Assembly: GCA_043812655.1 (NCBI GenBank)
Contig: JBDRLW010000001.1
Location: forward strand, 1-45,492
From: a bacterium
Lineage (GTDB): Bacteria > Margulisbacteria > WOR-1 > O2-12-FULL-45-9 > XYB2-FULL-48-7
Length of the DNA: 45,492 nucleotides
Reading direction: 5' to 3'
Shown here: piece by piece, positions 9,858 to 44,961 of the stretch
Position numbering within the stretch: position 1 is the first letter of the stretch
Layout of the letters: the number at the start of each line of letters is the position of its first letter
Made by a program: the position numbers and the translations under genes
Notes under the pieces: model-generated
Seen by the model: the letters and a program-made list of their open reading frames with translations, nothing else
Database searches by the model: none
Told to the model about the DNA's origin: nothing

Positions 9858-10032
9858 ATTTTAGCCCCCTATTTGACACTAGTCTTCTCCACTTCTCCTC
9901 TATATCTAATCATTTTCAAAATAATTTCAAGGGAAACGAGATTAAAATAGAGGTTAAAAGTCTTCACTGGTTTAAATGAGACAATTCATTTAATGGTTAA
10001 ATCAATAATAGAACCCATATTGCGATTTGTTA

Positions 10033-13930: not shown

Positions 13931-13937
13931 TGGGCTT

Positions 13938-13987: not shown

Positions 13988-14075
13988 GTTTATCAATAAT
14001 TGTTAGGGCTGTAGAACCATAATCGGGCGGGCTTAACCTAACAGTTTTCCCGCCCTTATTTTATGGAGGTAAAAA

Positions 14076-27356: not shown

Positions 27357-27358
27357 AT

Positions 27359-28633
27359 TTATGCCTCTATATCAATTTTCCTTAGTAGATCATCAAGACC
27401 GGGAAGCATGGGGATCAAATACGGTTTAATGTTACACATCGCCGAATCAACTTTTACTTGATAACCGGTAATTAAGAAGTTCTTGTTGGCCAGCTTCTGC
27501 TGAAAGTCGCCAAAATCTTTGGCGATCAAATTCCGGCCCTCTTCCCCATATTCTTTCTCATTAAAAACAAAGATAACATAAACCTTATTATCTTTAACGA
27601 TCATCGACACGACCATTTTCCCCATATTTTCCGTTTCCATCGACATTACTACCTGGGTATTTCTGGGATCAATATTCGCTTGTTTTCCCTCCCCATCACG
27701 TTTTATGACAATTTCAAAATCTTTCGGCGGATTGGTCATGGCATTGGGGATTTGCTGGTAATGATAATTAACTTCCTGGCGGCCGCTTTGGGATAAGATC
27801 GCTTGAGCTAATAAATTTTGCATTACGCTATCAAGCTTACCCTGAAATTCCCTGAGTGCCGCAGACAAAGCTTTAGCCTCCTCGCTCCCTGCCGGCGCTT
27901 TTTGCTGGAGGCCTTGGAGCAAAGCCTTGAGCGCCCTAACATCATTGATCGTATTCCCCCGATTAAAGGCTTTAGTCGCCCCTTTTTCGGTAATTGACTG
28001 GAATGTGCTGTCAAATTGGGCTAAGATCGCCGACAATTGCGAAAGCAGCGCCGAATCAAACAGGCCCTTACCCATCCCCATTGCACTGTTAAGATTGCCA
28101 AGCGCCCCTTGCATTGAGATCATCTTCGCCGCTAGTGCCGGATTTTCAGTAAAATATTGTCCCAAAACCTTAGCGGCCGAAGGATCATCTATCCCCTTCA
28201 TGAGGAGGAGAACCGCCGCTTCCTGCATCGATTGCGACTTATCGCTCCCTTGGATCATCGTCATGACCTTAACAAAATTGGTTTGTGATAATTCAAGGCC
28301 GTTGCGAAGCATAAGGGAAGCCAACTTGGTATTAAAATCGTTCGCTTCAATTTGTTGAGAGAGAAGGTGAGAACGGATATCTTCTATGGTAAGCGGCCTG
28401 GCTACTGACGGGGCTGGTTTAGGTGGGGCAACTGGAACTCCTGCTTGGGGACCAGTGGGAGCGGAAACTTCTCCCGGTTTAGTTGGCGCCCCTCTAGAAG
28501 GAACGCCTCTTACTCCCCCAGCAGTCTCAGCTTGCGCAGCGTTGCTGACCGGAGAACTTGAGGCCTTCCCTGTCGGCCAAAGAACTGGTTTCCCGGGGTG
28601 CAAGCCCCCACCATCGGCTTTTACCTCTGCCAT
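27359..28633 (-). CDS. FliK-like (YlqG-like) hook-length control protein
   Basis: Low-complexity Pro/Ala N-terminus and C-terminal METENMGKMVVSM (LxxxxLGxV-type) domain; directly upstream of the FlhB-like gene. Confidence 0.65.
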   Translation of the reverse strand: MAEVKADGGGLHPGKPVLWPTGKASSSPVSNAAQAETAGGVRGVPSRGAPTKPGEVSAPTGPQAGVPVAPPKPAPSVARPLTIEDIRSHLLSQQIEANDFNTKLASLMLRNGLELSQTNFVKVMTMIQGSDKSQSMQEAAVLLLMKGIDDPSAAKVLGQYFTENPALAAKMISMQGALGNLNSAMGMGKGLFDSALLSQLSAILAQFDSTFQSITEKGATKAFNRGNTINDVRALKALLQGLQQKAPAGSEEAKALSAALREFQGKLDSVMQNLLAQAILSQSGRQEVNYHYQQIPNAMTNPPKDFEIVIKRDGEGKQANIDPRNTQVVMSMETENMGKMVVSMIVKDNKVYVIFVFNEKEYGEEGRNLIAKDFGDFQQKLANKNFLITGYQVKVDSAMCNIKPYLIPMLPGLDDLLRKIDIEA

Positions 28634-29627: not shown

Positions 29628-29638
29628 TAGATTTCTCC

Positions 29639-29957: not shown

Positions 29958-30029
29958 AATAAGGGCATAAGTTGTTTAAATCAGTTTTATGTTATTAATA
30001 CATGAACAAAAATACACAAACAGAAAAAA

Positions 30030-30057
30030 TGAAATTTTTCCCAAAACCTGCCGATAT
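30030..30057 (+). promoter_or_regulatory. Sigma-28-like promoter
   Basis: GAAA-N15-GCCGATAT, compared with the FliA consensus TAAA-N15-GCCGATAA. Confidence 0.7.
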
Positions 30058-30109
30058 ATATACGTCTAAGGCTTGCTGAGTCACAATGATGACATAGGAG
30101 GAAAAGAAA

Positions 30110-31027
30110 ATGAGTTTATCGGTAGGGTTAGTTTATTTAGCGAGAACAATGGTAAGGCAAACTCCCAATGGGCTTGCTAATGAGGAAGATGAAGGGAAAA
30201 AAACAGCCAGCGAAGCTTTTAATCCACCACAATTCAACGAATTTGAAGGGACTATTCGAGATTTTTCTGTTTGCCACTATGAGTACAATCAATTTCAAAG
30301 AATGGAAAAATGTGTTTCTATAAAAGCAGAGATAAAAAATCGTTATGAAGAAGGATTAAATCGATTTAAAATCGGAGAAGCATTCTTGGCTAGTGGGGAT
30401 AATATTGAAGCTAATCTCAAGTTTAGGGAAGCAGATCGTTTTTTTAATTATGCTCAAGCTTTATTTAGAACAAATCAAGATGGAACTCGCGACTATTCGG
30501 TCAGTTCTCCGCAAATAAATCATGCAAAATTAGCCGCGCAAGCAAAATTACCAAACAACTATCCTCATTTACCTGGGTTATCTTTTGTTACTGGAGGAAC
30601 CCCTTTTGATTTATGCGGGGAGCTAAGAGCGCAAAATATGGAATATTATCAAAAAAAAGAGCTTGGGTTAATTTGCGATAATCTTGAAGGCAGCGAAAAA
30701 GCCCCGGCAAATAGGATGCTGTATCAATTAATTCCTTCAGCTACGGAGATTTTTAGGCGTTATTCTACATCAATGCCAGATCACGAACTCACCTTTGTCT
30801 TTAAAGTATCAGTAAAAAGTGACGGCTCTGCAGAAGTAAAAGTTGTTCCGAGTGAAGATGAAATTAGTAATTTGGATGAAGGTTATAAAGAAAAGTTGTC
30901 AACTCGTTTTGAACATTTGATGATAAAAATAAAAGAAAATATGGACTTCGGCCCTACGCCTACAAACCTTAATTTCTCATTGACTTTTATTAAATCAGAT
31001 ACAACAATACAGGTTCTTCAGCAATAA
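30110..31027 (+). CDS. Orphan hypothetical protein
   Basis: 305-aa ORF with AGGAGG RBS; no recognised motifs. Confidence 0.7.
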   Translation: MSLSVGLVYLARTMVRQTPNGLANEEDEGKKTASEAFNPPQFNEFEGTIRDFSVCHYEYNQFQRMEKCVSIKAEIKNRYEEGLNRFKIGEAFLASGDNIEANLKFREADRFFNYAQALFRTNQDGTRDYSVSSPQINHAKLAAQAKLPNNYPHLPGLSFVTGGTPFDLCGELRAQNMEYYQKKELGLICDNLEGSEKAPANRMLYQLIPSATEIFRRYSTSMPDHELTFVFKVSVKSDGSAEVKVVPSEDEISNLDEGYKEKLSTRFEHLMIKIKENMDFGPTPTNLNFSLTFIKSDTTIQVLQQ

Positions 31028-31028
31028 T

Positions 31029-32402
31029 CTAAAAAGAGGCATATTTGACCTTTGTCGTTGTTCCTGTCCCTTCATAATAGCTTAAATACTTTTTCCCGTT
31101 AGTGCCGATGGCTAACGAGGGATAACCGCTGCTCTGTTTTACAACCGTCATAAATAGCCAAGCTCCCGTTACATTTGTCGCAATTTTTAAAGCGCCTGAA
31201 GCATCAACATATGTAACATATAATTTCCCATTAGCATCGACTTTAATACAAGGATTTGTACTTACACTATTTTTTGATCCAACATTAGCTAAAGTTGATA
31301 CAACCCAAGCGCCTGAAGTATTTGTAGCATATCTTAAAGCGGCGTTTTCTCTATCATCATAGACAATGTGGATCTTGCCATTACCATCAATTGCTATAGA
31401 ATGATCAATATCTGTAACGACAGAATCTACAATATATTCAACTGCGGCAACTTCTTGGGTAATCCAAGTGCCAGAGGCATTGGTCGCATATTTTATTTTT
31501 TTCCCAGCTTCGCCATAGTAAGCGAAATGAAGTTTATTATTAGTATCAATAACTAGTGAGGTTTTTTGGCTACGTTCCTTATCAACAACAAACCCTTCCC
31601 ATGAACCATTCGCATTAGTGTAATATTTTAAATAGCCGGTGCCATTAGCCTGAAATCCGACATATGTTTTATCGTTATTATCAACCCCTATGGCGCTATA
31701 GCGTCCAAATTCCCCAGCATTATAATCACCAATTATAGATTTAACCCAACTTCCAGTAGAATTATCAGAATATCTTAACCCTGGGGTTGGATTCGCCGCC
31801 ACACTAAATCCACCAGAATAACTCACTTGGGGTTTATTGTTGCTATCTATTCCCAAAGCAACTCCATAACCGCCAACTCCATGGACAGAACCACCCGCTT
31901 CAATCGTTGAAACTCCCCAAGAGCCAGAAATATTAGTCGCATATTTGGGCCCTTGAATGTTGTCATTATAATAAGCAATGTGAGCCTTATTATTGCTATC
32001 AGTCCCGATCGCCGTATCGTCTGCTGATGACAAAGCACCAACATTTGCATCAATTGTTGTAACCTCGTTTAACACCACGTTTACAGTTGAAGAATAAGCA
32101 AGCTTATAAGTAGTGTTAGCTGTTTGTTGGCTGGTTGTCAAAGCAACCGTCACCCCATCAGCACCTAAGCTAGCGGCGGTTACTTCCAGGCTAGTTGTTT
32201 CATCAAGCGACTTTACTGCGTAATTACTTTTATTGGTAGCCGAAGAGTCGGGTGTTCCATTAAATAAAACAGCAAGCGATGTTGACGAATTTGTGGTAAC
32301 TGAGACAATAGACGGAGCAGTCGTTTGTGAAAAAAGCCCGCAACCAAAGATTCCCAGCCCAGCCACTAACAAAAATCCTAAAACAATATATTTTTTAAAC
32401 AT
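31029..32402 (-). CDS. Surface lipoprotein with an Ig-like N-domain and beta-propeller-like repeats
   Basis: Lipobox IFGC; about six repeats of IxxDxNxKxHxxY...LxYATNxSGxW. Confidence 0.8.
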   Translation of the reverse strand: MFKKYIVLGFLLVAGLGIFGCGLFSQTTAPSIVSVTTNSSTSLAVLFNGTPDSSATNKSNYAVKSLDETTSLEVTAASLGADGVTVALTTSQQTANTTYKLAYSSTVNVVLNEVTTIDANVGALSSADDTAIGTDSNNKAHIAYYNDNIQGPKYATNISGSWGVSTIEAGGSVHGVGGYGVALGIDSNNKPQVSYSGGFSVAANPTPGLRYSDNSTGSWVKSIIGDYNAGEFGRYSAIGVDNNDKTYVGFQANGTGYLKYYTNANGSWEGFVVDKERSQKTSLVIDTNNKLHFAYYGEAGKKIKYATNASGTWITQEVAAVEYIVDSVVTDIDHSIAIDGNGKIHIVYDDRENAALRYATNTSGAWVVSTLANVGSKNSVSTNPCIKVDANGKLYVTYVDASGALKIATNVTGAWLFMTVVKQSSGYPSLAIGTNGKKYLSYYEGTGTTTKVKYASF

Positions 32403-32436
32403 CTATAATCTCCTCCTCTTTTTTGACGTCTAATAT

Positions 32437-32465
32437 AGTTTACCCCCCCCCCCGTAGAATGTCAA
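32437..32465 (-). promoter_or_regulatory. Sigma-70 promoter with a G11 tract in the spacer
   Basis: TTGACA-TTCTAC-G11-TAAACT, spacer exactly 17 nt. Confidence 0.75.
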
Positions 32466-34219
32466 TCAGTATTTTTGTCGACGTGAATATTAGGCTTATT
32501 TTCTTTCTTCGCGACTACTTCCGATGTCGGCATTCTATTATCCTTATACCATTTTAAGATGTCCCTAGCTACATAAGCCGAGGATTGGTCGCCATGGGCG
32601 CCATGGGCCACAAAAGAGGCGATCACTATCTTGGCATCATCATACGGAGCATAGCAAAGGAACCAAGCATGGGGAATCCCCGGATTTTCCGCTGTTCCGG
32701 TCTTGCCGGCCGCCAAAAAGCCTTCTATTTTTGCCGCCCGGCCGGTCGCCCTGTCAACCACCGCCCTCAAAGCTTCTCTAATAACAGCTAAAGTTTTTGG
32801 AGAAGCAGGAACCTTGGCTTCTTCTATCGATGAAGCGGAATATAAAAGCTCCCCGTTCCTATTCTTTATTTCTTTAACAATATACGGTTTCATCCGTTTA
32901 CCGCTAGCCAAAGCCGCGTAAATTTCCGCCATTTGGATCGGCGTCACTTGGACAAAGCCCTGGCCGATTCCATAATTGATCGAATCCCCTTCATACCAGA
33001 TCTCTCTCCTCGCCCTTTTCTTCCATTCTGAATCGGGAATTGTCCCTTTTTTCTCTTGGGGAAGATCGATCCCGGTCCTTTCGTTCAGCCCATATAATTT
33101 CGCATATTTCGCCAAACGGTCCGGGCCAAGCCGCCGTCCCAACTCATAAAAAACAATATCGCATGATTGGGTCAAGCCTTCCTGTGCCGTGATCTTCCCG
33201 TGTCCGCCCTCTTTCCAGCATTTAGCGATCCGGCCGTTAAGGTTGTAATACCCGGGACAATAAAAAGCTTCGTTTGATTGGGTAAGGTTTTCATCAAGCG
33301 CCGCGGTCAAGGTGACAACCTTAAAGATTGAGCCGGGAGGATAAACTGCCAGCGCCCTGTTCATAAAAGGGTGGCGGCCATGCCCAAGCGCCAGTTTCAC
33401 GTCATTAGGGTCAAAACTTGGCCGGCTAACTAAAGCAAGTATCTCCCCTGTTTTTGGATCAAGAACTACAACCGCTCCTTCTTTCTCACCCAACGCCTTC
33501 TCAGCCGCGATCTGCAGGTCAAGATCGATCGTTAATTTAACGTCAGCCCCCGGTTTAGGCTCAACTGTTTCCAGCATCCTGGTTGGCGAACCATAGACGT
33601 CAACTTCGATCATCTTCCCCCCATCAACACCCCGGATAAAATTGTCATATACTTTTTCTACTCCATCTTTGCCGACCCAATCACCAAGCTTATATCCTTC
33701 GCTCTTCTGCCGCTTTAATTCGTCTTGTTCGATCTCACCAACGTAACCAAGCGAAAGAGACGCTGTCTTGCCATGTGGATAAAAACGGACCGGCTGGATA
33801 GAAACGATCACCCCATCAAGTTCTCTTTTTTCTTCTTCGATCTTCATCGCGGTTTCCAGCGCGATGTTATCTTTAACAATGATCGGCCGGTCAGACGAAG
33901 GTTTAAAGCGGATCTTTTCTCCCAGGATCTCCCCTAACCGATTTAAGACCCGCGCCCGCTTATTTTTATCACGGGAAGAAAGCAATTGCGGCAAGACCTG
34001 GACAGAAAATATCGGGCGGTTTTCGACCATTACTTTACCGTTGCGGTCGTAAATGATCCCCCGGGCGGCTGGGCTGGGAACGATCTTCGCGGCGTTGACG
34101 CTTGCTTCTTCCCGGTATTTTCCCCCCATCGCCAGCTGAAGCCAAAAAAGGCGGAGGCCAAGGATCGTCAGTAAAACAATCGCGATAACAGCTAAAGAAT
34201 AGTTTTTTTCATTTGGCAT
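32462..34219 (-). CDS. mrdA: Penicillin-binding protein 2
   Basis: RGIIYDRNG, PPGSIFK, SCD and KTGTAE; follows mreBCD. Confidence 0.95.
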   Translation of the reverse strand: MPNEKNYSLAVIAIVLLTILGLRLFWLQLAMGGKYREEASVNAAKIVPSPAARGIIYDRNGKVMVENRPIFSVQVLPQLLSSRDKNKRARVLNRLGEILGEKIRFKPSSDRPIIVKDNIALETAMKIEEEKRELDGVIVSIQPVRFYPHGKTASLSLGYVGEIEQDELKRQKSEGYKLGDWVGKDGVEKVYDNFIRGVDGGKMIEVDVYGSPTRMLETVEPKPGADVKLTIDLDLQIAAEKALGEKEGAVVVLDPKTGEILALVSRPSFDPNDVKLALGHGRHPFMNRALAVYPPGSIFKVVTLTAALDENLTQSNEAFYCPGYYNLNGRIAKCWKEGGHGKITAQEGLTQSCDIVFYELGRRLGPDRLAKYAKLYGLNERTGIDLPQEKKGTIPDSEWKKRARREIWYEGDSINYGIGQGFVQVTPIQMAEIYAALASGKRMKPYIVKEIKNRNGELLYSASSIEEAKVPASPKTLAVIREALRAVVDRATGRAAKIEGFLAAGKTGTAENPGIPHAWFLCYAPYDDAKIVIASFVAHGAHGDQSSAYVARDILKWYKDNRMPTSEVVAKKENKPNIHVDKNTD

Positions 34220-34679
34220 TAGTCAATTCCTTGACCAAGGGAAATAATAAAAAGACAAAGGCCATATTTAATAGTGTCCCGCCAACCAGCTGTACAATAA
34301 AATAAACTGGGCTTATGGCATTATTAAGGATAATTAACCTGGCAATAATAAAAACAGGTGAAAAAAGGGCGGTCATGCTAAGCGAGAAAGAAAATTCGTC
34401 GCCGCTAAGGCCTGCCCTTGTCCCGCTGATAATATTACTGATGACCACTTTAATGATCGTGTTGAGTAGGATCCCTGCCGACATAAGATCTTGTAATAAT
34501 GATAAAGTGGCGGCAAAAACGGTCGCTGGCGCCCTCTCCTCAAAAACAGCAAAAATGACCACGGCCACTAAAACCAGGTCGGGCATTAAGCCGAATAAAT
34601 TTAGCCTGGCCAAGATCACGGTTTGGAGGACAAAAAGACCTAAAATAAAGGCCGCTATTTTAAAAAGACGCAACGACAA
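34209..34679 (-). CDS. mreD: Rod shape protein MreD
   Basis: Hydrophobic protein with PDLVLV and LLQDL motifs; operon position. Confidence 0.85.
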   Translation of the reverse strand: MSLRLFKIAAFILGLFVLQTVILARLNLFGLMPDLVLVAVVIFAVFEERAPATVFAATLSLLQDLMSAGILLNTIIKVVISNIISGTRAGLSGDEFSFSLSMTALFSPVFIIARLIILNNAISPVYFIVQLVGGTLLNMAFVFLLFPLVKELTNAK

Positions 34680-35478
34680 AAACCTCTTCCAGCCGGAAAA
34701 AGTTGACCGCTGGTTTTATTTTAATGTCATAAAACAGGTCGACCTCTCTTTTCGTGGCGCTAGAAATGATCCCGATCGGTATTCCAGGCGGGAAAAGGAG
34801 CGAAGCCGCCGCAGTAACGATCTTATCTCCCGGCGCTAAAACTGCCCCGGTATTAACATATTTCATTGACAATAGGTATGGCGAATACCCTTCCACCACC
34901 CCAGAACTCCGGTTGTTCTGCTCAACCGCCGCGACCGAACTTGAAGGATCAGTAATTAACAGGACTTTTGAGCTTAATGGGGATACTTCGATCACCAGCC
35001 CTACCAACCCATCTCTCACCACCACTGGCCTATTTAATAAGACGCCGGCCTTACTCCCTTTATCAATTATTAAGACCAAGCTTTGCGGTGAAGCCGAGCG
35101 GCCGACCACTCGGGAAGGTATAAGTTTTAAGTGATAAGAATTAAGAACAGAAAAACCCAACCCTTCCCTTAATCTGGCGTTTTCCTGCTTTAGTTCTTCC
35201 AATTGGAGCAAACTAATTTCTTTTGACGCTAACTCCGCTTTTAAAGCGGCATTTTCTGCCGCTTGATTTTTTAAGTCGATTAAAAAGCCGGGAAATCCGG
35301 TCGTGCCATGCCATATCGCATTCGCCGTAAATTGGAAGGGATAAATAGCGCCGGCCGCAATCATCCTAAGGGACGACAAATTATTGATAAAAACAAAAGA
35401 TAAAAGCGCGGCCAAAACCAGGATCATGGCCGGTAAAACGTAAGAAGTTTTTTTCCTAAAAGGCCGGTACTGCGTCAC
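34660..35478 (-). CDS. mreC: Rod shape protein MreC
   Basis: TM segment, coiled-coil [16 protein letters not shown] and FPPGIPIG. Confidence 0.93.
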
Positions 35479-36521
35479 AGGTTGCTTTTGCTAGGCATTA
35501 TCAATACTTTTTTCAAAGTATCGATCTCTTCCAATATTTTTCCAGTCCCGTAAGCGACGCAAGAGACTGGATCATCGACAACATAGACCGACATGTCTGT
35601 CTCTTGAGCCAGAAATTTATCAAGCCCGCGCAAGAGAGATCCTCCGCCAGCCATCACGATCCCCCGGTCCATAATGTCGGCCGCCAGCTCTGGCGGTGTT
35701 TTTTCAAGCGTCATCCTGACCGCGTCAACTACGGTCGAAACCGGTTCAGCTAAAGCATCCCTAATTTCCGATGAAGTTAAAGTTAAAGTTTTGGGCAGTC
35801 CAGTCACTAGGTCGCGGCCTCTAACCTCGATCGTTTTTTCTTCCGGCAGAGGATACGCGGAACCGATATCAATTTTGATCTGTTCCGCCGTTCTTTCCCC
35901 GATCAAAAGATTATAATTTTTGCGGCAGTGGGCCACGATCGCTTCGTCCATTTCGTCGCCGGCTACCCGGATCGATTTGGAAACAACAATGCCGCCAAGC
36001 GCTAAAACCGCGACTTCGGTCGTCCCGCCGCCGATATCAACGATCATGCTGCCTTGTGCTTCGGAAACCGGAAGGTTAGCGCCGATCGCCGCCGCCATCG
36101 GTTCTTCAACCAGATAAGCTTCACGGGCTCCCGCGTGCATCGCCGCGTCAAGAACAGCTCTTTTTTCCACTCCGGTAATACCGGACGGGACGCCAACCAC
36201 GATCCGCGGCCGGACAAAGGCTGAACGGTTGTGGCTTTTGTTAATAAAGTGGCGGAGCATCATTTCGGTGATCTCAAAATCAGCGATAACACCATCGCGC
36301 ATCGGACGGACCGCGACGATATTGGCCGGGGTCCTTCCCAACATCCCTTTGGCTTCGTTCCCAAAAGCTAGGGCTTTGTTATTATCCTTATTGATCGCCA
36401 CGACCGACGGTTCACAAAGAATGATCCCCTCGCCTCGCGCAAAGACCAAGGTGGTCGCTGTTCCCAAATCTATCCCCAAGTCCCTAGAGAATTGGCCAAA
36501 TACATAATCGTACATTGACAT
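35475..36521 (-). CDS. mreB: Rod shape protein MreB
   Basis: [26 protein letters not shown] and PPELAADI. Confidence 0.98.
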
Positions 36522-36538
36522 GAACAGTAGCCTCCTTG

Positions 36539-37126
36539 CTATTCAAACAAAATAATTGATTCAAATCCTTTGGCTGTTAAATTAGCCTTTTGGGCATTAG
36601 CTTCACTTCTAGTCTTAAACGCACCAACTTGAACTCGCCAGCCGAGCGAAGTCTTTTTAAGATAAGTATCAATCCCTTTTTCATTAAGCTGCGCTGCAAG
36701 CTTCTCCGCATTGGCCTTATAGATAAACAATCCAGCCTGAACTTTGTAAGGGTAAGCACTTCTGCTTGATCTAGCTATTCTCTTGCGCTTAGAAGATCGC
36801 TCACCCTTAGCCATTTTCTTATCGCACGCGGCCTGCTTCTCTTCCAGATAACTTTTTTGCAGCGCCTTTATCGCCGGCGGCGGTTCAGGGATCGGCACGA
36901 CTATTTTCCGTTCAAAATCTCCACCCGCCGGAAAAAGGATTCTCCTTCCCAGCTGGAAGCTCAACCAAAAACTGCCAACAACAATCAAAGCTAAACCGAC
37001 CAGCACCAAAGCATTTTTAAACTTGGCAAAACCGTTACCAGGCTTTTGCTCTTCTGTCTCTGGTGTCTCCGGGTTTTGGACTTCTAATTCTTTATCTTTT
37101 AACTCGTTTAGCTCTTCGTTGGCCAT
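36539..37126 (-). CDS. SPOR-domain membrane protein
   Basis: One TM segment; YKVQAGLF...NAEKL and [14 protein letters not shown]. Confidence 0.88.
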
Positions 37127-37275
37127 TAGGATGTTATTCTACTATGTATCTTCCATAATCGTCAACTAATATTATTAGTGAAATTTATTTTTATATCAAA
37201 CGATTAAAGTATAAGCGAAAGATTCAAAACATAATAATTTTAGTTCAACATGATCATAGACTTAAAAGGAATTTA

Positions 37276-38301
37276 ATGATGACCATTACAAATCCAATTG
37301 GCCCAATTCGGCAAAGACTCGCGGCTAGTAAACTTAATTATACAAACATTCCTCCAGGCACTGTTTTCCCTAAAAAGCTGACGGTCCAAAAAAAAATCGC
37401 CGACGGCGGCATGTCAAGTGTTTATTTAGCTCATGACACAAGCCAGCGACCAGTCGTAATTAAAGTAACAAACAATGGTGAGATTTTTCATGTCCAGGCT
37501 TTAAGACAAGAAGTCGAAGTGCTATCTCTTTTCACTAGTCGCCCGATCTCCAAAATATTTAATCGTTTCCTTAATCGGAGAGCACCATTTCCTGACCTTT
37601 ATGATTCAAACGTTAACGATGAAAAAGCTTTTGGCGGTTTACGCTACGTCGCCTTAGAATATATTCCCGGTGAAACATTGAATAACATTATTGCCGGCCA
37701 TGAAAATATCCCATTGCACAAAGCGATTGAAATTGCGATGCAGCTTTGTGGTTTACAAGCATTACATGAACAAAACTATGTCCATCGCGATATTAAGCCG
37801 GAAAATATAATCATCAACAATGAAACAGGCGCCCACATTATCGATTTTGGTGTTAGCTGCCGCACCGGACACCGAGATAAAAGGGACTTAGTTGTCGGGA
37901 CGCCTTCTTACATGTCCTCTGAACTTTCATTGGCTAGATTCGCGGCGCCAAGATCAGATATTTATTCTCTTGGCTTGGTCCTTTATGAAATGATCAGTGG
38001 TGATAATCCTATGCGGCATGACAACCATCAGCAAGCCTTAAATAATCAGCAAGAAAAACCTTTACCGAAACTAGAGATCACTGAACGAATTAGATCGGAC
38101 AAAAGAGATGAATTCATCAATACAGTAGGAGAACTCCAAACATTACTCAATGATTTAATCGGAAAAATGACCGAAAAACAACGCAGTAAACGCTTTAAAA
38201 GCCTCAAGCCTGTTGAGACTCTTTTGCTCCGTGCGCATGTTTTAGCCTTAACCTTTAAACATTACGAAAAGCGGATAAAACAATCTTTTCCCCACGAATA
38301 A
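37276..38301 (+). CDS. Hanks-type Ser/Thr protein kinase, soluble
   Basis: IADGGMSSVYLA, VVIK, HRDIKPEN, DFG, GTPSYMSSE and SDIYSLG; no TM or sensor domain seen. Confidence 0.93.
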   Translation: MMTITNPIGPIRQRLAASKLNYTNIPPGTVFPKKLTVQKKIADGGMSSVYLAHDTSQRPVVIKVTNNGEIFHVQALRQEVEVLSLFTSRPISKIFNRFLNRRAPFPDLYDSNVNDEKAFGGLRYVALEYIPGETLNNIIAGHENIPLHKAIEIAMQLCGLQALHEQNYVHRDIKPENIIINNETGAHIIDFGVSCRTGHRDKRDLVVGTPSYMSSELSLARFAAPRSDIYSLGLVLYEMISGDNPMRHDNHQQALNNQQEKPLPKLEITERIRSDKRDEFINTVGELQTLLNDLIGKMTEKQRSKRFKSLKPVETLLLRAHVLALTFKHYEKRIKQSFPHE

Positions 38302-39424
38302 TTCTTAAGGCATCGGCGGCCAAAAACAAAGAGCCGGTCATTATCCTGTCTTTTCCTTTCGTCATCGCCAAAGCCTTTTTCAAAGCGATCGGCTTTAAGC
38401 CTGCAACCTCTTCCGCCGAGTTGTGGTGAGATGACCGGACAGCAATTATCTCTTTAGCAAGGGGTTTTATTAAGCGGATCATTTTTTTTGCATCTTTATC
38501 TTTCTGCACTCCCACAATAAAACTAAATTTCTTTTCTCCAAACTCCCGACTCAATCCTCCTATCAATGACCTCACCCCCGCCGGATTATGCGCCCCATCA
38601 ACGATCGTTAAAGGTTTTTTGCTTACGACCTGAAACCTTGCCGGCCAGATAACTTTGCGAAAACCAGCCTTAATATTATTCCGTGATACTTTTATCCCGG
38701 CCGCTTTGATCGCTTCTACCGCGCAGGCAGCGTTGATTTTCTGGTGAGCGCCAGTCAGGGGCATAGTTGGGAGTGCGGAGCTCGGAGTTGGGATAAAAAT
38801 AATCGCGTTGTTTCTTTGGGCATATTTTTTTATGACACTTAGTGGTTCTTTTTTTATTTCTGCTGTCACGACCGGAACGCCAGGCTTAATAATTGCGGCC
38901 TTTTCAGCGGCGATCTTGGCCAACGTATCACCCAGGATCGCCGTATGTTCCAGATCGATATTAGTTATAACTGAAACCAGTGGCGTAATTACATTAGTCG
39001 CATCCAGCCGCCCACCCATCCCCACTTCAATTACCGCGTAATCCACTTTCTTCTTGGCAAACCACCAAAAGGCCACGGCGGTCAACACTTCGAAGACAGT
39101 TGGTTGGTCGGTTAGTTGATTGGTTTGTTGGCGAATCAGCTTTAACCCTTCATTCAATTCCTTTTTCGAAATATCTCGCCCATTTATTTTGAAACGCTCG
39201 GTGTAATCAAAAAGATGGGGGGAAGTATAAAGGCCAACCTTGTATCCAGCTTCTTTTAGAATTGAGGCGATCATAGAGCAGGTCGACCCCTTGCCGTTCG
39301 TCCCCGCCACATGGATCGACTTAAATTGATTTTGGGGATTGCCTAGGTTCTCAAGCAAAAAACTTATCCGCTCTAAACCAAGATTGATACCAAACTTTTC
39401 TAGTGAGGCTAAATATTTTTCCAT
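38255..39424 (-). CDS. folC: Folylpolyglutamate synthase/dihydrofolate synthase
   Basis: HVAGTNGKGS, YTSPHL, EVGMGGRLDATN and DGAHNP. Confidence 0.97.
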   Translation of the reverse strand: MEKYLASLEKFGINLGLERISFLLENLGNPQNQFKSIHVAGTNGKGSTCSMIASILKEAGYKVGLYTSPHLFDYTERFKINGRDISKKELNEGLKLIRQQTNQLTDQPTVFEVLTAVAFWWFAKKKVDYAVIEVGMGGRLDATNVITPLVSVITNIDLEHTAILGDTLAKIAAEKAAIIKPGVPVVTAEIKKEPLSVIKKYAQRNNAIIFIPTPSSALPTMPLTGAHQKINAACAVEAIKAAGIKVSRNNIKAGFRKVIWPARFQVVSKKPLTIVDGAHNPAGVRSLIGGLSREFGEKKFSFIVGVQKDKDAKKMIRLIKPLAKEIIAVRSSHHNSAEEVAGLKPIALKKALAMTKGKDRIMTGSLFLAADALRIIRGEKIVLSAFRNV

Positions 39425-39436
39425 TATTTTTTACCA

Positions 39437-39472
39437 CCCCTCTCCCCCAGGGAGAGGAGCCGGGGGTGAGGG
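39437..39472. repeat. Intergenic partial copy of the REP-like family found in hemW
   Basis: CCCCTCTCCC-CCA-GGGAGAGG...GGGGTGAGGG. Confidence 0.8.
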
Positions 39473-39475
39473 CTT

Positions 39476-40057
39476 TTAAGTAATTAATTTATACAAGAAG
39501 TTGATTATTTCCATCAAGATCGGCGAACCAAAGGTAATTATAAACAATAAAATTATAAAACCATATTGTTGCATCCGATATAACCCCTCTAATTGATGGG
39601 CCGGCAGGAAATATTCAAGGATATGCGAACCATCGAGCGGGGGGATCGGAATTAAATTAAAAACCCCCAGTGAAAGGTTGATCCAAATAGCATAAGTAAA
39701 CATCATGGCAATATACGGATCGATCATCGGTACGTTACGTAGAATAACGGCCAATATCCAAGCAAATAGAAAATTGGAAAAAGGCCCGGCTAGACTAACT
39801 AAAAGCGAGCCTTGCCGCGGATTTTGAAAATTATAAGGATTGATCGGCACTGGCTTAGCCCAACCAAAACGGACCAAGACCAGCATTAGCAGACCGATCG
39901 GGTCGATATGCGAAATAGGGTTTAAAGTTAAGCGTCCGGCTAACCTCGGGGTTGGATCCCCTAGCCTATCCGCCACCAAAGCGTGGGCAAATTCATGGAC
40001 CGTTATCACTGCAAGTAAGATCGGCAACGAAACGATCAAAAAACTTATGTCAAACAT
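39476..40057 (-). CDS. Site-2 protease (peptidase M50)
   Basis: HEFAH, GRLTLNP, AGPFSN and FNLIPIPPLDG. Confidence 0.95.
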   Translation of the reverse strand: MFDISFLIVSLPILLAVITVHEFAHALVADRLGDPTPRLAGRLTLNPISHIDPIGLLMLVLVRFGWAKPVPINPYNFQNPRQGSLLVSLAGPFSNFLFAWILAVILRNVPMIDPYIAMMFTYAIWINLSLGVFNLIPIPPLDGSHILEYFLPAHQLEGLYRMQQYGFIILLFIITFGSPILMEIINFLYKLIT

Positions 40058-40067
40058 TTTTTACCTC

Positions 40068-40943
40068 CTACGCCCTTGGATGGGCCTTCAGATACATTTT
40101 CTTTATTCTATCACGCGAGACCGAAGTATAGATCTGGGTCGTCGCGATATCAGAATGACCCAGCATCTCTTGGACCGACCGCAGATCAGCCCCTTTTTCA
40201 AGTAGATGGGTAGCGAATGAATGCCGTAAAGTGTGGGGCGAAGTTTTGGCCTTGATCCCCTGTTTTTTAACGTACTTTTTTATGATCAGCCATAAACCTT
40301 GGCGGCTTAATCTTTTACCATCCTTATCCAGGAAAAGTGCTTCGTTATCTTTTTTAGGGAGCTCGGAGCGCCCTTTTTCCAAATATTCCTTTAATGAATC
40401 AAGGGCTGACTGGCCGATCGGCACAACCCGCTCTTTTGACCCTTTACCTAAACAACGGATAAAAGAGACGGCAAAATTGATGTCGGAAATATTCAAGGAA
40501 ACTATTTCGGAGGCTCGCAGTCCTGTAGCGTAAAGAAATTCCAGGAGCGCGTTGTCACGCAGTGAAAGAGGGTCTTTGGCCCGGGGCGAAGAAATTAAAC
40601 GGAGCGTTTCGCCGATCGTCAACGCTTTAGGCAAGCGCTTAGCCTTTTTCGGTAATTTAAAATCAACCGTTGGATCGATCTTTACTTCATCCTCGCCTAT
40701 TAAATAATGAAAGAACGATTTTAAGCTGGCCATTTTCCTCTCGATCGAAGGGACAGAAAAACCTTTCTCGTTCAAGTGGTCAAGATAATCCTTGATCTTC
40801 TCCCTGGCAATTAAATTAGCCGAATCAGCTTTGGCAAATTTGGCAAATTGCCGAAGGTCATGGTCGTAGGAGAGAAGAGTGTTTTGGGAATACCCCCTTT
40901 CAACATGGAGGTAGCTAATAAAGTTTTTAATCTGCTCTTTCAT
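40068..40943 (-). CDS. xerD: Site-specific tyrosine recombinase XerD
   Basis: YATGLRASE, GKGSKERVVP, HTLRHSFATHLL and LGHSDIATTQIY. Start moved to ATG 40943. Confidence 0.92.
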   Translation of the reverse strand: MKEQIKNFISYLHVERGYSQNTLLSYDHDLRQFAKFAKADSANLIAREKIKDYLDHLNEKGFSVPSIERKMASLKSFFHYLIGEDEVKIDPTVDFKLPKKAKRLPKALTIGETLRLISSPRAKDPLSLRDNALLEFLYATGLRASEIVSLNISDINFAVSFIRCLGKGSKERVVPIGQSALDSLKEYLEKGRSELPKKDNEALFLDKDGKRLSRQGLWLIIKKYVKKQGIKAKTSPHTLRHSFATHLLEKGADLRSVQEMLGHSDIATTQIYTSVSRDRIKKMYLKAHPRA

Positions 40944-41463
40944 TAATATACTGGTCGGCAAGCATGATGCCAATGATCGTCTTATTGTCTTTGATCTTCC
41001 CTTTTTTCACCAGATCGATACAGGTTTCAATATCAACGATCTCCACTTCCACAATTTCATCCTCATCGGTATTTTGTCCCATCATGTCTAGACCGGTCGC
41101 CAAGCAATAATGGATCATTTCGTCGGAATAACCAGGTGATGAGTAAGCGCCAAATAATTCTTTAACTTTGCTTGGCCGATAACCGGTCTCTTCTTCCAAT
41201 TCCCGTTTGGCAGCTGCCACCAACTTTTCCCCTTTTTTGGGAACGCCAGCCGGGATCTCCAGCACAGCTTCACCGGTTGGGTACCGGAATTGCTTAACTA
41301 AGACCAACTCATCTTCTTCGGTGATCGCGATGATCGCCACCGCTCCCGGATGTTCCACAACTTCCCTGGTCGTTTCAACGCCATTCTCCAACTTAACTTT
41401 ATCGAACCTTACCCCTAAAAGGCGGCCGTCAAAGATCCGTTTTGAACTTATTTTCTTTTCCAC
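40927..41463 (-). CDS. nudF: NUDIX hydrolase (ADP-ribose pyrophosphatase-like)
   Basis: REVVEHPGAV, QFRYP and EIPAG...AAKRELEEETG. Confidence 0.85.
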   Translation of the reverse strand: MEKKISSKRIFDGRLLGVRFDKVKLENGVETTREVVEHPGAVAIIAITEEDELVLVKQFRYPTGEAVLEIPAGVPKKGEKLVAAAKRELEEETGYRPSKVKELFGAYSSPGYSDEMIHYCLATGLDMMGQNTDEDEIVEVEIVDIETCIDLVKKGKIKDNKTIIGIMLADQYINERAD

Positions 41464-42563
41464 TCCACCGCCTCCTTTAAAATATTTAAGATCATTTCCG
41501 TCCCGCGGACCAGATCGGCGACTTTTATTTGTTCCCGTTTGGTGTGGACATGATCGGCCCCTACCCCCAAGATCAAACAGGGAATGCCCAGACCATTAAA
41601 AATATTGGCATCAGATCCCCCGCCAGTTTCCCTGATGACCGGCGTAATCCCCATTCCTTTCATCCCGGCCATGACGAGAGACATTATTTTATTCTTCTTT
41701 TTGATCTCAAAAGATTTATATGCTTCTTTAATTTCCAGCCGCAGTTTAGCCGAATGTTTTTTAGTCGCGCGGACCAAGGTCTGTTTCATTTGGGCCACTT
41801 GCCGCGCCAGTTTTTTGGGGTCATGGCTCCTGGCTTCACCTTTTAAAAACACCTCATCGGGGATAATATTGGTCGCTTTTCCTCCCTGGATAATGCCGAT
41901 GTTAGCTGTTGTTTCACTATCGATCCGTCCCAGTTTCATCGCGGCGATCGCTTCACTGGCAACTTTGATCGAGTTGATCCCGTCTTCCGGGTGGATCCCG
42001 GCGTGGGCCGCCTTACCAATAATAGTAGCGGTTATATTTTGCTGTGACGGGGCTTTATTAACAATTTTATCGATATCGCCGCCATCAAGGACCAAGCCAA
42101 GATCAGCTTTTAAATATTTGGCGGGGATCGCTTTAGCGCCTACCAATCCGAGCTCTTCGGCCACAGTAAAAACCACGCGAAGGGGTGGATGTTTAATTTT
42201 CTTTTCTTTTAAATTCCGCAGTATTTCCAGGATCGCCGCTACGCCGGCTTTATTATCGGCACCCAAGATCGTTGAACCGTCGGAATAAATGTAGCCTTTT
42301 TTTTCGATCGGTTTAATGTTCTTCCCGGGGCCAACCGTATCGATGTGGGCATTGAGCAAAATGACCGGCCCTTTTTCTCCGGGCAGAGTTGTTATTAAAC
42401 TACCGACTTCCCCACTTTTTAACTTCCCCACTTCGGTAAACGGCAAGCCTAGGGCGCGAAGTTCTTTTTGTACATACGCCGCCGCTTTCTTTTCTTGGAG
42501 AGAAAGACTTTCTATTTTAACCAGTGCTTTAAATGCGTTTATTAAGCGTCGCTCGTTGATCAT
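41448..42563 (-). CDS. M20 family peptidase (peptidase T-like)
   Basis: AHIDTV, LGADNKAG, EELG, GGGSDAN and HT motifs. Confidence 0.9.
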   Translation of the reverse strand: MINERRLINAFKALVKIESLSLQEKKAAAYVQKELRALGLPFTEVGKLKSGEVGSLITTLPGEKGPVILLNAHIDTVGPGKNIKPIEKKGYIYSDGSTILGADNKAGVAAILEILRNLKEKKIKHPPLRVVFTVAEELGLVGAKAIPAKYLKADLGLVLDGGDIDKIVNKAPSQQNITATIIGKAAHAGIHPEDGINSIKVASEAIAAMKLGRIDSETTANIGIIQGGKATNIIPDEVFLKGEARSHDPKKLARQVAQMKQTLVRATKKHSAKLRLEIKEAYKSFEIKKKNKIMSLVMAGMKGMGITPVIRETGGGSDANIFNGLGIPCLILGVGADHVHTKREQIKVADLVRGTEMILNILKEAVEWKRK

Positions 42564-43585
42564 TTGAAGTGTTCATACCCTCCCGATTTCAACCTTTTAA
42601 TTTTACCACGCTTATCGATTAGTTTTACGCCAAACTGTTTATTAACAATCTCGCCAACAACAGTAAAACCTTTTTTACTAACCAACTCACCAATGGCTCG
42701 ACAAGACTTCGACGAGCTCAGTCGAGTCGCTCGCCATTCCAGCCATTCCGAGCACTGCCGAGGAACTAACAAACTATCAGACTTGCCCCTCACCGTAAAC
42801 ACCAGCTCATATTCCTCCCCCCCATATAAAGCCTGATCCAAAGTCGCTCCTTTGGCTATCGGCACCTGGGCCTCGTAAATCTTAGCCCCCACTCCGCTCG
42901 CTTTGCAGATCTCAAGTACGGAGCGAACTAAACCGTCGGAGCTGTCTATCATCGCCGTAGCCATCCGCGATTTCGCGATCATTCGAGCTTCCTGTGTTCT
43001 ACTTTCTACGCTCCACGTTCTACTATCATACTTTTTAGATGCCGGTCTTCCAAATTTGCCTGTCACGCAAATCAAATCCCCAACCTTGGCAGTCGAACGT
43101 AAAAGCAAATTTTCTTTTTCAACTTCACCTAACAATGTAATCGAGACAACCATCGCTTTGGGTGACGAAACCGTATCCCCACCAACAATGTCTATTTTAT
43201 GTTTTTTAGCCAGAGAATTGATCCCGCGGTAAAGCTGGTCAACCTCTTCAACTTTGATGGTTCTGGGCAAACCGACAGTAACTAAAGCGTGAGTTGGCCA
43301 TCCTCCCATCGCGGAAATATCCGAAATATTGGCAACCATGACTTTGCGTCCAAGATGATAAAAAATCGGTTTCCTCCCATTTTTTGGGGGGATCTTGAAG
43401 TGAACTTTTTCAATGAAAGTATCAGTGGTAATTAATTGATATTTTGCTGGCCCCTGGTCCCTGGACCCTGGTCCCTTCAGTACCGCGCAATCATCCCCAA
43501 TCCCTACAACAGTACTAGGGCGCCGCTTTTCTTGCCTGGCAATCCGTTCAATGAGGCCAAATTCACCGATCCGTGAGAGTTCCAC
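42560..43585 (-). CDS. thiL: Thiamine-monophosphate kinase with repeat-derived insertions
   Basis: GEFGLI, GIGDDCA, NISDISAMGG, GGDT, DSSDGL and GGEEYEL. Confidence 0.95.
   Translation of the reverse strand: MELSRIGEFGLIERIARQEKRRPSTVVGIGDDCAVLKGPGSRDQGPAKYQLITTDTFIEKVHFKIPPKNGRKPIFYHLGRKVMVANISDISAMGGWPTHALVTVGLPRTIKVEEVDQLYRGINSLAKKHKIDIVGGDTVSSPKAMVVSITLLGEVEKENLLLRSTAKVGDLICVTGKFGRPASKKYDSRTWSVESRTQEARMIAKSRMATAMIDSSDGLVRSVLEICKASGVGAKIYEAQVPIAKGATLDQALYGGEEYELVFTVRGKSDSLLVPRQCSEWLEWRATRLSSSKSCRAIGELVSKKGFTVVGEIVNKQFGVKLIDKRGKIKRLKSGGYEHFK
42692..42764. repeat. Nested palindromic repeat inside thiL, same family as in rsmE
   Basis: AATGGCTCGACAAGACTTCGACGAGCTCAGTCGAGTCGCTCGCCATTCCAGCCATTCCGAGCACTGCCGAGGA. 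Confidence 0.88.
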
Positions 43586-43727
43586 AAATATGATTATAAC
43601 ACAAGAAAAAAGCCGCGTTCTAACAGCAATGATTAATCTTTATTGTCTTTATTTATGCTGTCAAGAAAATCCGCTAAACTTTGTCCTTCATTTAATGCCT
43701 CAATTAAAGGCTTCGTAGCACCTAATC

Positions 43728-44153
43728 TCATAATCTTTCAACTGTTTTGGCTAAAGCCAAACACTCTTCTTGGGTTTGATTCCCGATATCTCCTTGACTA
43801 AAAGAACTAAGCATAGCCTCCAAACGATTTCCTTCTAGCGGGGTCAAGCCCTGCCTATCACTAAAAAGAGCTTCTTCCTGTCCAGACAATTGGGTTATAT
43901 TTGCTAGTCTATCGAGACGTAGAATAATAACTTTAGCATAATTCATATCAGGATTAAAATTTGTTGCGATTAATCCTTCGGCTGGATAATATTTTAATTG
44001 ATAGCCAGCTTCACGCAATTTATCTTTAACTTCCCTACGTTCCCTAAGATTTTTTGGTCGAACAAAATAATCACGTCCATTAAAAGAAACGCTTGAAGAA
44101 TTAGGGAAAGCAAAGCTTGCTGGCAACCCGACCCGTGCTCCAATATTTGGCAT
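43728..44153 (-). CDS. Orphan hypothetical protein
   Basis: 141-aa ORF with AAGGAG RBS. Confidence 0.65.
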   Translation of the reverse strand: MPNIGARVGLPASFAFPNSSSVSFNGRDYFVRPKNLRERREVKDKLREAGYQLKYYPAEGLIATNFNPDMNYAKVIILRLDRLANITQLSGQEEALFSDRQGLTPLEGNRLEAMLSSFSQGDIGNQTQEECLALAKTVERL

Positions 44154-44256
44154 AATAATTAATCTCCTTTCGTGCTCTAAATTATTTATCTTTACCTAAA
44201 ACAAATAATTTCACTTAAACTGAAATTATATTTATTTATACCCGAAGATAACTTAT

Positions 44257-44961
44257 ATGGTAAGGTCAATTAATTGTGTTGGTGGGAATCAAAGAAAACC
44301 ACCGGTGATCATTACTACTCATCCAAAATGCGCAAACTTACGCGGCCTGGCCCATATTACCATGGGAGCATTTAAGGAATTAGGTGGCTTTAGTTCTATG
44401 GGGGGTATTACTTTTGATGGGATAACTTCCGGCCGGACCGACCAGGTAATAACTAACATCCCTAGTGTTCTTGTCCGCGAACTATTTCCTGATAAAGTAA
44501 AAACCCATAGGGTCTATATCAGTTATAAACTTCTTTCTGCTTTAGCACAACACTTTGAGCTTGAGGAATCGCTAATAAACGGCTCCTTTTTTATAAAATC
44601 CCAAGGAGAATGGAGTGAAACTGGTAAAGTCGAAATCGCGCCAAGCTGGCAAGAATTAGTTGACCCAGAATGGAAAAATGATTTTTTTCAATGGATCCAA
44701 AACCCAAAAAAGCATCTTCTCCCAAATCCTTGTTCCTTCTCCTGGGGAACGATCGATAGAGGCTTCATGACCATGCCAGGAATGCTCCCTGCCATAAATA
44801 TTGGAGATAAAACTGAAGGGACACTTCAATTAACTTATGTCCAAACAACGAGACAGTGCTCTCTCCATGCGCTTTTTTCTCATCAGGGGAAACTTTTTGA
44901 TTTTCGAATAAATGCTAATAACCAAACAGTCGTTCTTGTAAGAAATAATTCTTTGCTCTAA
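44257..44961 (+). CDS. Orphan hypothetical protein
   Basis: 234-aa ORF divergent from 43728-44153. Confidence 0.65.
   Translation: MVRSINCVGGNQRKPPVIITTHPKCANLRGLAHITMGAFKELGGFSSMGGITFDGITSGRTDQVITNIPSVLVRELFPDKVKTHRVYISYKLLSALAQHFELEESLINGSFFIKSQGEWSETGKVEIAPSWQELVDPEWKNDFFQWIQNPKKHLLPNPCSFSWGTIDRGFMTMPGMLPAINIGDKTEGTLQLTYVQTTRQCSLHALFSHQGKLFDFRINANNQTVVLVRNNSLL

Follow-up and report, generated by a model that had tools for sequence, protein, structure and literature searches.

A sigma-28-type promoter signal with an altered -35 word precedes a fast-changing set of genes in a Saganbacteria genome and may be tied to a filament-less flagellar-type apparatus

Injectisomes bring together a flagellum-derived machine, a ruler with an FlhB/SctU switch, and a co-regulated set of fast-evolving, signal-less effectors that carry eukaryote-like domains. 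Sigma-28-type promoters can also reach beyond the flagellum: in Bdellovibrio bacteriovorus, TTAAG-N16-CCGATA occurs in 92 of 140 attack-phase promoters, which serve surface proteins, proteases, many proteins without assigned function and small RNAs (sRNAs) (PMC3627812). Filament-less flagellar basal bodies that serve, or are suspected to serve, in export are described for Buchnera aphidicola (PMC8109811) and for Lysobacter enzymogenes OH11, in which FliI and FlhB are needed for the secretion of toxic non-flagellar proteins (PMC7688988). Here we analysed a 45,492-nt stretch of DNA (the window; contig C1) from a metagenome-assembled genome of Saganbacteria (Margulisiibacteriota; 1.62 Mb, 46 contigs, 45% G+C, rated 93% complete), in which four sites pairing the word TGAAAT with a sigma-28-like -10 element precede a Ser/Thr protein kinase gene and three orphan genes. 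That these sites are promoters of a group-3 (sigma-28/FliA/WhiG-type) alternative sigma factor, whose regulon is tied to a filament-less flagellar-type apparatus and in part exported by it, is in our assessment an evenly balanced proposition. The promoter type, the expansion of FliA regulons beyond flagella and filament-less flagellar export machines are each already known.

All four sites lie where the first-pass annotation of this DNA had placed them, and the 14 nt after TGAAAT are followed by GCCGATAT, AACGATTA, CCCGAAGA and AAAGATAA, respectively. Promoter 1 (30022..30069, + strand) has TGAAAT at 30030-30035, the -10 GCCGATAT at 30050-30057 and a predicted transcription start at ~30064-30065, and scores 41.6 with the matrix described below (40.4 when the training set excludes the window). 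Further 3' come an AGGAGG ribosome-binding site and, at 30110, the ATG of P0001 (30110..31027, +), a Pfam-less orphan gene for 305 aa that lacks a hydrophobic N-terminal segment and has no homologue at E<=1e-5 in any of 40 related genomes. Promoter 2 (37171..37218, +; TGAAAT at 37179-37184, -10 AACGATTA at 37199-37206, predicted start ~37213; score 25.3, or 21.3 with the window left out) precedes P0002 (37276..38301, +), which encodes the 341-aa kinase (Pkinase domain, 7.5e-40). Only distant homologues of this kinase (31-44% identity) were detected, in 9 of 40 relatives, and at 6 of 12 homologue loci, belonging to other genera, a same-strand site scoring >=26 lies within ~250 nt upstream. Promoter 3 (44213..44260, +; TGAAAT at 44221-44226, -10 CCCGAAGA at 44241-44248, predicted start ~44255; score 22.9, or 19.7 with the window left out) precedes P0004 (44257..44961, +), a Pfam-less orphan of 234 aa whose ATG at 44257 comes only 1-2 nt past the predicted start, so that the mRNA would be nearly leaderless; a paralogue at C22:54305 (26% identity over 221 aa) likewise stands behind a site. 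Back to back with it, 7 bp away, promoter 4 (44174..44221, - strand; TGAAAT from 44213 to 44208, -10 AAAGATAA from 44193 to 44186, predicted start ~44179; score 31.2, or 29.0 with the window left out) precedes P0003 (43728..44153, -), a Pfam-less orphan of 141 aa that also lacks a hydrophobic segment and has an AAGGAGA ribosome-binding site 5' of its ATG at 44153. Matches of P0001 and P0004 in the ESM Atlas (scores 0.84-0.86, to weak TonB_C or no family) were below a reliable level and were not used. The four genes had been described as orphan-type throughout, which does not apply to the kinase with its Pkinase domain, and the motif had been said to precede every orphan outside a satellite island, whereas none stands in front of the Pfam-less open reading frames (ORFs) at 25081-25863 and 31029-32402.

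Taken by itself, the window gives a marginal signal, with three matches to TGAAAT-N16-CGA against 0.84 expected and at least three in 5 of 100 shuffles. Across the genome, in which a crude longest-ORF caller returned 1570 ORFs, marking 93% of the sequence as coding and leaving ~7% outside ORFs, the same pattern occurs 61 times; 49 matches are outside ORFs, and 40 have a same-strand ORF starting no more than 200 nt downstream. Positions that had not been searched for are conserved in the 49 aligned sites (T26 in 45, A27 in 44, T34 in 36 and a purine at 35 in all 49), as are A at -7, -6 and -5 from the T of TGAAAT (39, 34 and 41 sites), C/G at 0 (44/49) and T7 (44/49). We then built a 48-column matrix, iterated once, from 73 training sites and applied it at a threshold score of >=14. 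It returned 89 sites genome-wide, compared with 0, 4 and 4 in three locally shuffled genomes; 76 of these were outside ORFs, and 65 of the 76 had a same-strand ORF start within 200 nt. With the matrix trained on the 71 sites outside the window, the four window sites keep the left-out scores given above (40.4, 29.0, 21.3 and 19.7), and the maximum of 100 shuffled windows is 15.6. Among the 73 training sites, a set selected by the matrix itself, C23 occurs in 53, G24 and A25, both fixed by the seed pattern, in 73 each, and T26 and A27, which lie outside that pattern, in 66 each.

An enumeration of all 5-mer/gap/5-mer dyads in 631 upstream regions led to the same signal, GAAAT-N16-CGATA being the top non-palindromic dyad with 33 occurrences against 0.28 expected. 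The dyads ranked above it are dispersed palindromic repeats (CCCCTCTC...GAGAGGGG and AACCG...CGGTT types), which dominate intergenic dyad statistics throughout the genome. Exact matches to TGAAAT-N16-CGATA number 10-121 in each of the 40 closest relatives (40/40; reversed control 0-3) and 10-194 per genome in the focal class (48 genomes; reversed control 0-4). Spacers and flanks are not conserved, conservation being confined to the -35, -10 and start positions. The genome-wide scan that the first-pass annotation had proposed places the motif far above shuffled and reversed controls and does not support random matching in AT-rich intergenic DNA.

The consensus, AAA-N4-(C/G)TGAAATTT-N12-(G)(C/A)CGATAT-N5-T-R-G, can be compared directly with the sigma-28 promoter of Pseudomonas aeruginosa fliC, which has a -35 TCTAAAG at -36..-30 and a -10 GCCGATAA at -15..-8 (PMC12784957). 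When the GCCGATAT octamer is set at -15..-8, GAAA falls at -34..-31, the register of TAAA, and the conserved T-R comes to lie at -2/-1 to -1/+1, as would suit a transcription start; the sigma-28-type assignment made in the first-pass annotation is borne out in this respect. The two promoter types share the two-box architecture, the register, the CGATA core (often GCCGATAT) and an A-rich -35 core at -34..-31, and the -10 here is of the GCCGATAA type, window site 1 reading GCCGATAT. The -35 keeps sigma-28 spacing, 15 nt before the -10 octamer, but its core is GAAA inside an invariant TGAAAT rather than TAAA, the full word being (C/G)TGAAAT in place of TCTAAAG; an additional A-tract lies at about -43..-41, and the targets are non-flagellar. 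The signal is sigma-28 architecture with an altered -35 word. Of the same 631 upstream regions, 70 contain TGnTATAAT, 170 TATAAT and 48 TTGAC-N17-19-TAnnnT, and since such canonical sigma-70 promoters occur side by side with it, the TGAAAT motif marks a separate class, read in all likelihood by an alternative sigma factor.

Two further features of the sites bear on promoter function. Each of the two highest scorers (51.1 and 49.2; C44:50470-50585, - strand, and C18:54313-54440, + strand) stands at the head of a ~65-nt unit, in which a conserved 5' part is followed by a terminator hairpin and a T-run; from one copy to the other, three base pairs of the hairpin have changed in a compensatory manner. 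These units are probably paralogous sRNAs, and as such lend independent support to a role of the sites as promoters; an Rfam search of the sRNA candidate gave nothing near a gathering score (best E 0.057). In ~20 of 81 regulon units, as at window positions 44255-44259, no more than 4 nt separate the start codon from the predicted transcription start, which suggests that leaderless mRNAs are frequent in this promoter class.

Besides RpoD, one extracytoplasmic function (ECF) sigma factor and RpoN, the genome encodes two FliA/WhiG-like sigma factors, of 242 aa and 196 aa. The FliA-type sigma factor sought by the first-pass annotation therefore has two candidates, neither of which is a canonical FliA. 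The best PDB relatives of the 242-aa protein over residues 6-239 are WhiG (6pfj, 5e-23), Escherichia coli FliA (6pmi) and Aquifex FliA (1rp3). Its gene lies between flgB and a 97-aa ORF that follows flgI, within the same-strand run flgF-flgG-flgA-flgH-flgI-ORF97-sigma-flgB-flgC-fliE-fliF-fliG-fliH-fliI-fliJ, and a perfect TTGACA-N17-TATAAT stands 5' of flgF, the first gene of the run. The 196-aa sigma gene follows flhA and has a promoter of its own (TTTACA/TGcTACAAT), and the fliK-like operon has a sigma-70-type promoter as well; no TGAAAT site scoring >=19 precedes any flagellar-type gene. Both sigma factors are single-copy and conserved in the class, the 242-aa one in 38 of 41 genomes at 59-78% identity and the 196-aa one in 41 of 41 at 60-87%. 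In printed alignments, which make for a weak argument, both have Arg in place of the Gln of the ESRVSQ helix; this Gln corresponds, with an inferred numbering offset, to Gln228 of P. aeruginosa sigma-28, the reader of -36/-35, so that the replacement fits a changed -35 word. A likely reader that is a group-3 sigma factor encoded among flagellar-type genes is a trait shared with sigma-28 class-3 systems, from which the candidates differ by this Arg and by their lower match to the FliA_WhiG model.

The export system on which the first-pass reading depended is encoded in the genome. Genes of the export gate and ATPase complex (FlhA, FlhB, FliO/P/Q/R and FliH/I/J) are present in two clusters plus the pair in the window, together with ring genes (FliF, FliM, FliN and a 152-aa FliG that consists of the N-terminal part alone), rod and L/P-ring genes (FliE, FlgB/C/F/G and FlgA/H/I) and a gene for a 273-aa member of the FlgE/F/G subfamily (130 bits). 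Two FliK-like proteins, one weakly matching the YscP needle-length domain, and a stand-alone FlhB C-terminal-domain protein complete the set. The window pair consists of a FliK-like gene for 424 aa (27359..28633, - strand; Flg_hook 1.7e-4, below cut-off, and no NCBIfam match), near which no motif site scoring >=4 occurs, and the adjoining gene for the stand-alone FlhB C-domain protein of 106 aa (27036..27356, - strand; Bac_export_2 1e-22; TIGR00789 flhB_rel 94.3 bits, below the cut-off of 117.35), the two together spanning 27036-28633. For FlhA, FliI and FliP, flagellar models outscore the injectisome (Sct) models, with FlhA at 765.6 bits against 657.7 for SctV, and FliI clade 2 and FliP score above flagellar cut-offs.

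Filament and motor components, by contrast with this export machinery, were not found: Flagellin_N, FliD_C, MotA_ExbB and FliG_C each gave 0 matches in the genome, and Flg_bbr_C matched four proteins only, namely FlgC, FlgF, FlgG and the 273-aa protein. Because the genome is only 93% complete, class-level counts weigh more than these absences. Across 41 genomes of the class, Flagellin_N and FliG_C were each matched in a single genome, compared with FlhA in 40 (24 of 24 among high-quality genomes). The sole Flagellin_N match (G002:C4:62270-62632, a 253-aa frame with no motif upstream) and the sole FliG_C match (G039:C24:4206-4523) may be remnants or acquisitions. The likeness to Buchnera and Lysobacter is that genes for the export gate and basal body persist in the absence of a functional flagellin. 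The difference is that theirs are recent reductions of a single flagellar system, whereas here a distinct, phylum-wide FlhA lineage persists beside a true flagellum in flagellated members and is accompanied by one or more dedicated sigma factors and a large, promoter-defined regulon.

This distinct lineage emerged from a survey of 121 genomes of the phylum, of which 112 encode FlhA and 15 flagellin; at least two FlhA matches were found in 13 of the 15 flagellin-positive genomes. A tree of 39 FlhA sequences (10 pairs, 18 singletons across families and the copy of the genome studied here, C3:80838-82802; mafft and FastTree with the LG model, midpoint rooted, no outgroup) gathers one copy of each pair in a clade with support 1.0 and places all singletons, our own FlhA and the other copies of the pairs in a second one, with congruent topology between the two subtrees. 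Since our FlhA belongs to the second clade, the genome has only the second, flagellin-independent kind of system, a kind retained across the phylum. A canonical FliA (212-235 bits) is encoded 2-3 kb from the first-kind FlhA in four flagellated genomes. Upstream of 17 flagellin or flagellin-like genes (12 flagellated genomes plus G002), TAAAG-N16-CGA(T/C/A)A occurs in 6 and TGAAAT in none, one region having a weak AGAAAT. Flagellated genomes nonetheless still hold TGAAAT-N16-CGATA, with 4-37 exact matches against 0-3 for the reversed control. Counts of TAAAG-N16-CGATA in five genomes are near those of reversed controls, this class being too small or degenerate for the pattern, and single textbook-like sites are visible in the flagellated genomes. 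The simplest reading, which we infer from these distributions, would be two paralogous sigma/promoter pairs, canonical FliA with TAAAG for the true flagellum and a divergent sigma factor with TGAAAT for the second system.

Regulon content was assessed from the first ORF <=300 nt downstream of each of 66 non-window sites scoring >=19 (Pfam, E<=1e-5), with six random 20-kb regions as controls (21 of 103 genes Pfam-less, or 20 of 101 after removal of two regulon members). Pfam-less genes make up 42 of the 66 first genes, compared with 20 of 101 in the controls (Fisher p=1.4e-8). The Pfam-bearing remainder includes two leucine-rich-repeat (LRR) and two HEAT-repeat proteins, a PKD-bearing 1207-aa protein, GH16, two NAGPA, YkuD, GGDEF, HD, radical SAM and methyltransferase proteins; ribosomal protein L4, GlmS, an ABC transporter and S-adenosylhomocysteine (AdoHcy) hydrolase are dubious cases, in which the site is inside an ORF or far away. 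rpoD and mraZ also stand behind the motif, which in the first-pass annotation had not been noticed before housekeeping genes. The enrichment anticipated in the first-pass annotation thus extends to Pfam-less and eukaryote-like genes (LRR, HEAT, Ser/Thr kinase) but not to flagellar genes, which number 0 of 66, and the regulon is dispersed, as had been suggested, but spans ~90 promoters rather than four genes, and takes in GGDEF, two sRNA candidates and some lipoprotein-like or membrane proteins. Regulon genes are lower in G+C (median 0.421 versus 0.460, p=2e-7). The motif and both sigma factors are conserved across the class and the regulated genes are not, the content of the regulon turning over rapidly. 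On contig C25 (4467-59813, ~55 kb) nearly every gene has its own site; this run includes proteins of 1757, 1433, 2281 and 1207 aa, and among its 1207-2281-aa proteins are some that match no Pfam family and lack a hydrophobic segment at the N-terminus.

N-termini were compared for 81 regulon products, whose start codons had been reassigned to positions after the predicted transcription start. Within residues 1-75, 12 of the 81 have a hydrophobic segment, compared with 477 of 1570 ORFs genome-wide (p=0.0025; depleted), in line with the earlier observation that the window proteins lack Sec signals; some of these 12 are lipoprotein-like, with a long N-region and a lipobox-like Cys. In the first 25 residues of the 69 segment-less products, set against 260 filtered controls with an ATG and a ribosome-binding site, Pro (regulon/control ratio 1.66), Ser (1.64) and Arg (1.50) are raised and Asp (0.53), Lys (0.53) and Glu (0.48) lowered, and beyond residue 50 all these ratios return to 0.86-1.17. 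Of the Ser/Thr/Pro/Ile/Gly richness first proposed, Ser and Pro are enriched and Ile and Gly are not. Ser/Pro-rich, acid-poor N-termini have been reported for type III signals. A separate N-terminal module of ~100 aa is shared by three regulon proteins (C25:50564, C45:5317 on the - strand and C43:282); it reads M-x-N-I-x-N-V-S ... F-N-F-x-D-P-E-A-T, continues with a hydrophobic helix and a Cys-rich lipobox-like stretch, and is fused to LRR, to a 649-aa orphan part or to nothing.

We propose that the motif is read by one of the two FliA/WhiG-like sigma factors encoded beside basal-body and export genes, the 242-aa one being favoured, in a hierarchy resembling that of flagella: sigma-70 would drive synthesis of the apparatus and of the sigma factor, which would then turn on a 'late' tier. 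This order is suggested because flgF, the fliK-like operon and the 196-aa sigma gene have sigma-70-type promoters and flagellar-type genes have no TGAAAT sites of their own. The late tier, devoid of filament genes, would comprise ~90 units encoding orphan, LRR, HEAT, kinase and giant proteins together with the two sRNAs, and a subset of its proteins would leave through the apparatus. Export of such a subset by the flagellar-type system is plausible, its chances standing near one half: it would fit the retention of rulers and switch when no late substrate was found, a sigma gene in the apparatus operon, the eukaryote-like domains and the fast turnover. The likeness to injectisomes lies in the similar logic of machine, ruler/switch and co-regulated protein set, and the difference in core proteins that score best with flagellar models and in the L/P rings, which are kept.

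Several observations weigh against this proposal. Three of the four window sites have a weak -10 (AACGATTA, CCCGAAGA and AAAGATAA, with cores CGATT, CGAAG and AGATA). Both sigma factors score below the curated TIGR02479 (FliA_WhiG) cut-off of 189.6 bits, at 130.9 bits for the 242-aa and 75.8 bits for the 196-aa protein, and as both occur class-wide their distribution cannot tell which of them reads the motif. No FlgM-like anti-sigma factor was found in the genome, the best match (E=0.03, 15.6 bits) being sub-threshold and situated in a ribosomal-protein region, which leaves a coupling of the regulon to completion of the apparatus unsupported. Gene starts from the crude caller could bias the N-terminal statistics, and a signal-less N-terminus is equally expected of a cytoplasmic protein. 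Several regulon members are, moreover, plainly cytoplasmic or envelope proteins (RpoD, MraZ, GGDEF, HD, methyltransferases, YkuD and lipobox-bearing LRR proteins).

The most serious alternative, which we regard as somewhat unlikely, keeps the same promoters and sigma type but has them serve a life-stage or condition programme comparable to the Bdellovibrio attack phase; the products would act inside the cell or be surface-bound via Sec, lipoprotein or other routes, and the apparatus would be structural or export only its own rod and ruler parts. The Bdellovibrio precedent itself speaks for such a programme (PMC3627812): there, too, a sigma-28-type motif has spread to about a hundred promoters, covering surface proteins, proteins without assigned function and small RNAs far beyond flagellar genes. 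So does the presence in the regulon of rpoD, mraZ, GGDEF, HD, radical-SAM and methyltransferase genes and two sRNA candidates, as do the dozen products with hydrophobic N-terminal segments, some with lipobox-like Cys. Bdellovibrio is, however, flagellated, with FliA still driving its flagellar genes, whereas flagellin and motor genes were not found here and the -35 is unlike that before the flagellin genes of flagellated relatives. A life-stage programme also accounts less readily for an N-terminal composition bias restricted to the first 25 residues, for the depletion of hydrophobic N-termini, for FliK-like rulers and an FlhB switch kept though no late substrate was found, and for rapid content turnover beneath a conserved sigma factor and promoter.

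A second alternative concerns one step only, namely that the motif is read by the 196-aa sigma factor encoded 3' of flhA, which we hold to be doubtful. This protein occupies the classical fliA position after flhA, is present in every class genome at high identity and, like the 242-aa sigma factor, has Arg at the Gln228 position. It matches FliA models in region 4 and only weakly in region 2, and the short segment that comes next to region 2 on its C-terminal side contains no Arg; the 242-aa protein, on the other hand, keeps VPYRV at the E. coli VPRSV stretch, which holds the extended -10 reader Arg (P. aeruginosa Arg97). On these residues and model matches, the 242-aa sigma factor is probably the reader.

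A conventional class-3 (FliA) flagellar regulon, such as a motile bacterium would have, is very improbable. The many flagellar genes of the genome and a motif in sigma-28 register would suit it; yet no first downstream gene is flagellar, flagellin, FliD, MotA and FliG_C were not found in the genome, the flagellin upstream regions of relatives carry TAAAG-type rather than TGAAAT words, and flagellated relatives hold an additional canonical FliA beside a second FlhA. Least credible of all is the idea that the sites are not promoters but arose by chance in AT-rich intergenic DNA or belong to a dispersed repeat or mobile element. The marginal count in the window and a genome full of palindromic repeats might have suggested it, but we rejected it on the evidence of local shuffles, orientation towards same-strand ORF starts, unconserved spacers and flanks, and retention across the class against near-empty reversed controls.

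No account of such an apparatus or regulon in Saganbacteria or Margulisbacteria was found in the parts of the literature available to us, nor, within the same bounds, was the combination seen here, a separate phylum-wide FlhA lineage or a distinct -35 dialect. The motif supplies a definition of the regulon that can be read from sequence in a phylum without a cultured member: a TGAAAT-N16-CGATA scan would list the genes under this sigma factor in any genome of the lineage. A regulon tied to a phylum-wide apparatus also raises the question of what a filament-less flagellar machine exports. Were the regulon its cargo, it would be a second natural case, beside the injectisome, of a flagellum turned secretion device, and would hint at close interactions between these small-genome bacteria and other cells; if not, a flagellar sigma/promoter pair would have outlived the flagellum and been rewired, as in Bdellovibrio. 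A broader and tentative proposal, which we consider unlikely as a whole, is that the Margulisiibacteriota, above all the Saganbacteria, possess a second flagellum-derived type III machine, of ancient divergence and without motor or filament, that has its own TGAAAT-reading sigma factor, and that ~50-200 promoters per genome define a fast-turnover repertoire of exported, effector-like proteins (kinases, LRR, HEAT and giant orphans). If true, an uncultivated phylum would have co-opted the flagellum independently, in the manner of the injectisome, and its cargo could be listed straight from the DNA.

The remainder of the window is largely of housekeeping character, with scpAB, trpS, genes for penicillin-binding proteins (PBPs), holA, lepA, hemN, hrcA-grpE-dnaK-dnaJ, mreBCD-pbp2 and a xerC-like gene. 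The satellite of the first-pass annotation is an island at 9186-15263 (~9-15.3 kb) that holds a tyrosine integrase, a DUF3987 primase-like gene, a small-terminase-like gene and several low-G+C orphans. At the edge of this integrase/primase island, a weak candidate fifth site (9890..9937, - strand) lies 5' of a Thr-rich, lipoprotein-like ORF (9186-9833); its score of 14.4 falls within the range of shuffled windows (maximum 15.6) and is indistinguishable from chance. Pairs of small DUF4160 and DUF2442 genes occur at least twice in the genome, on contig C46 (66975-67428) and in the window (29388-29899, - strand), where the pair lies directly 5' of promoter 1.

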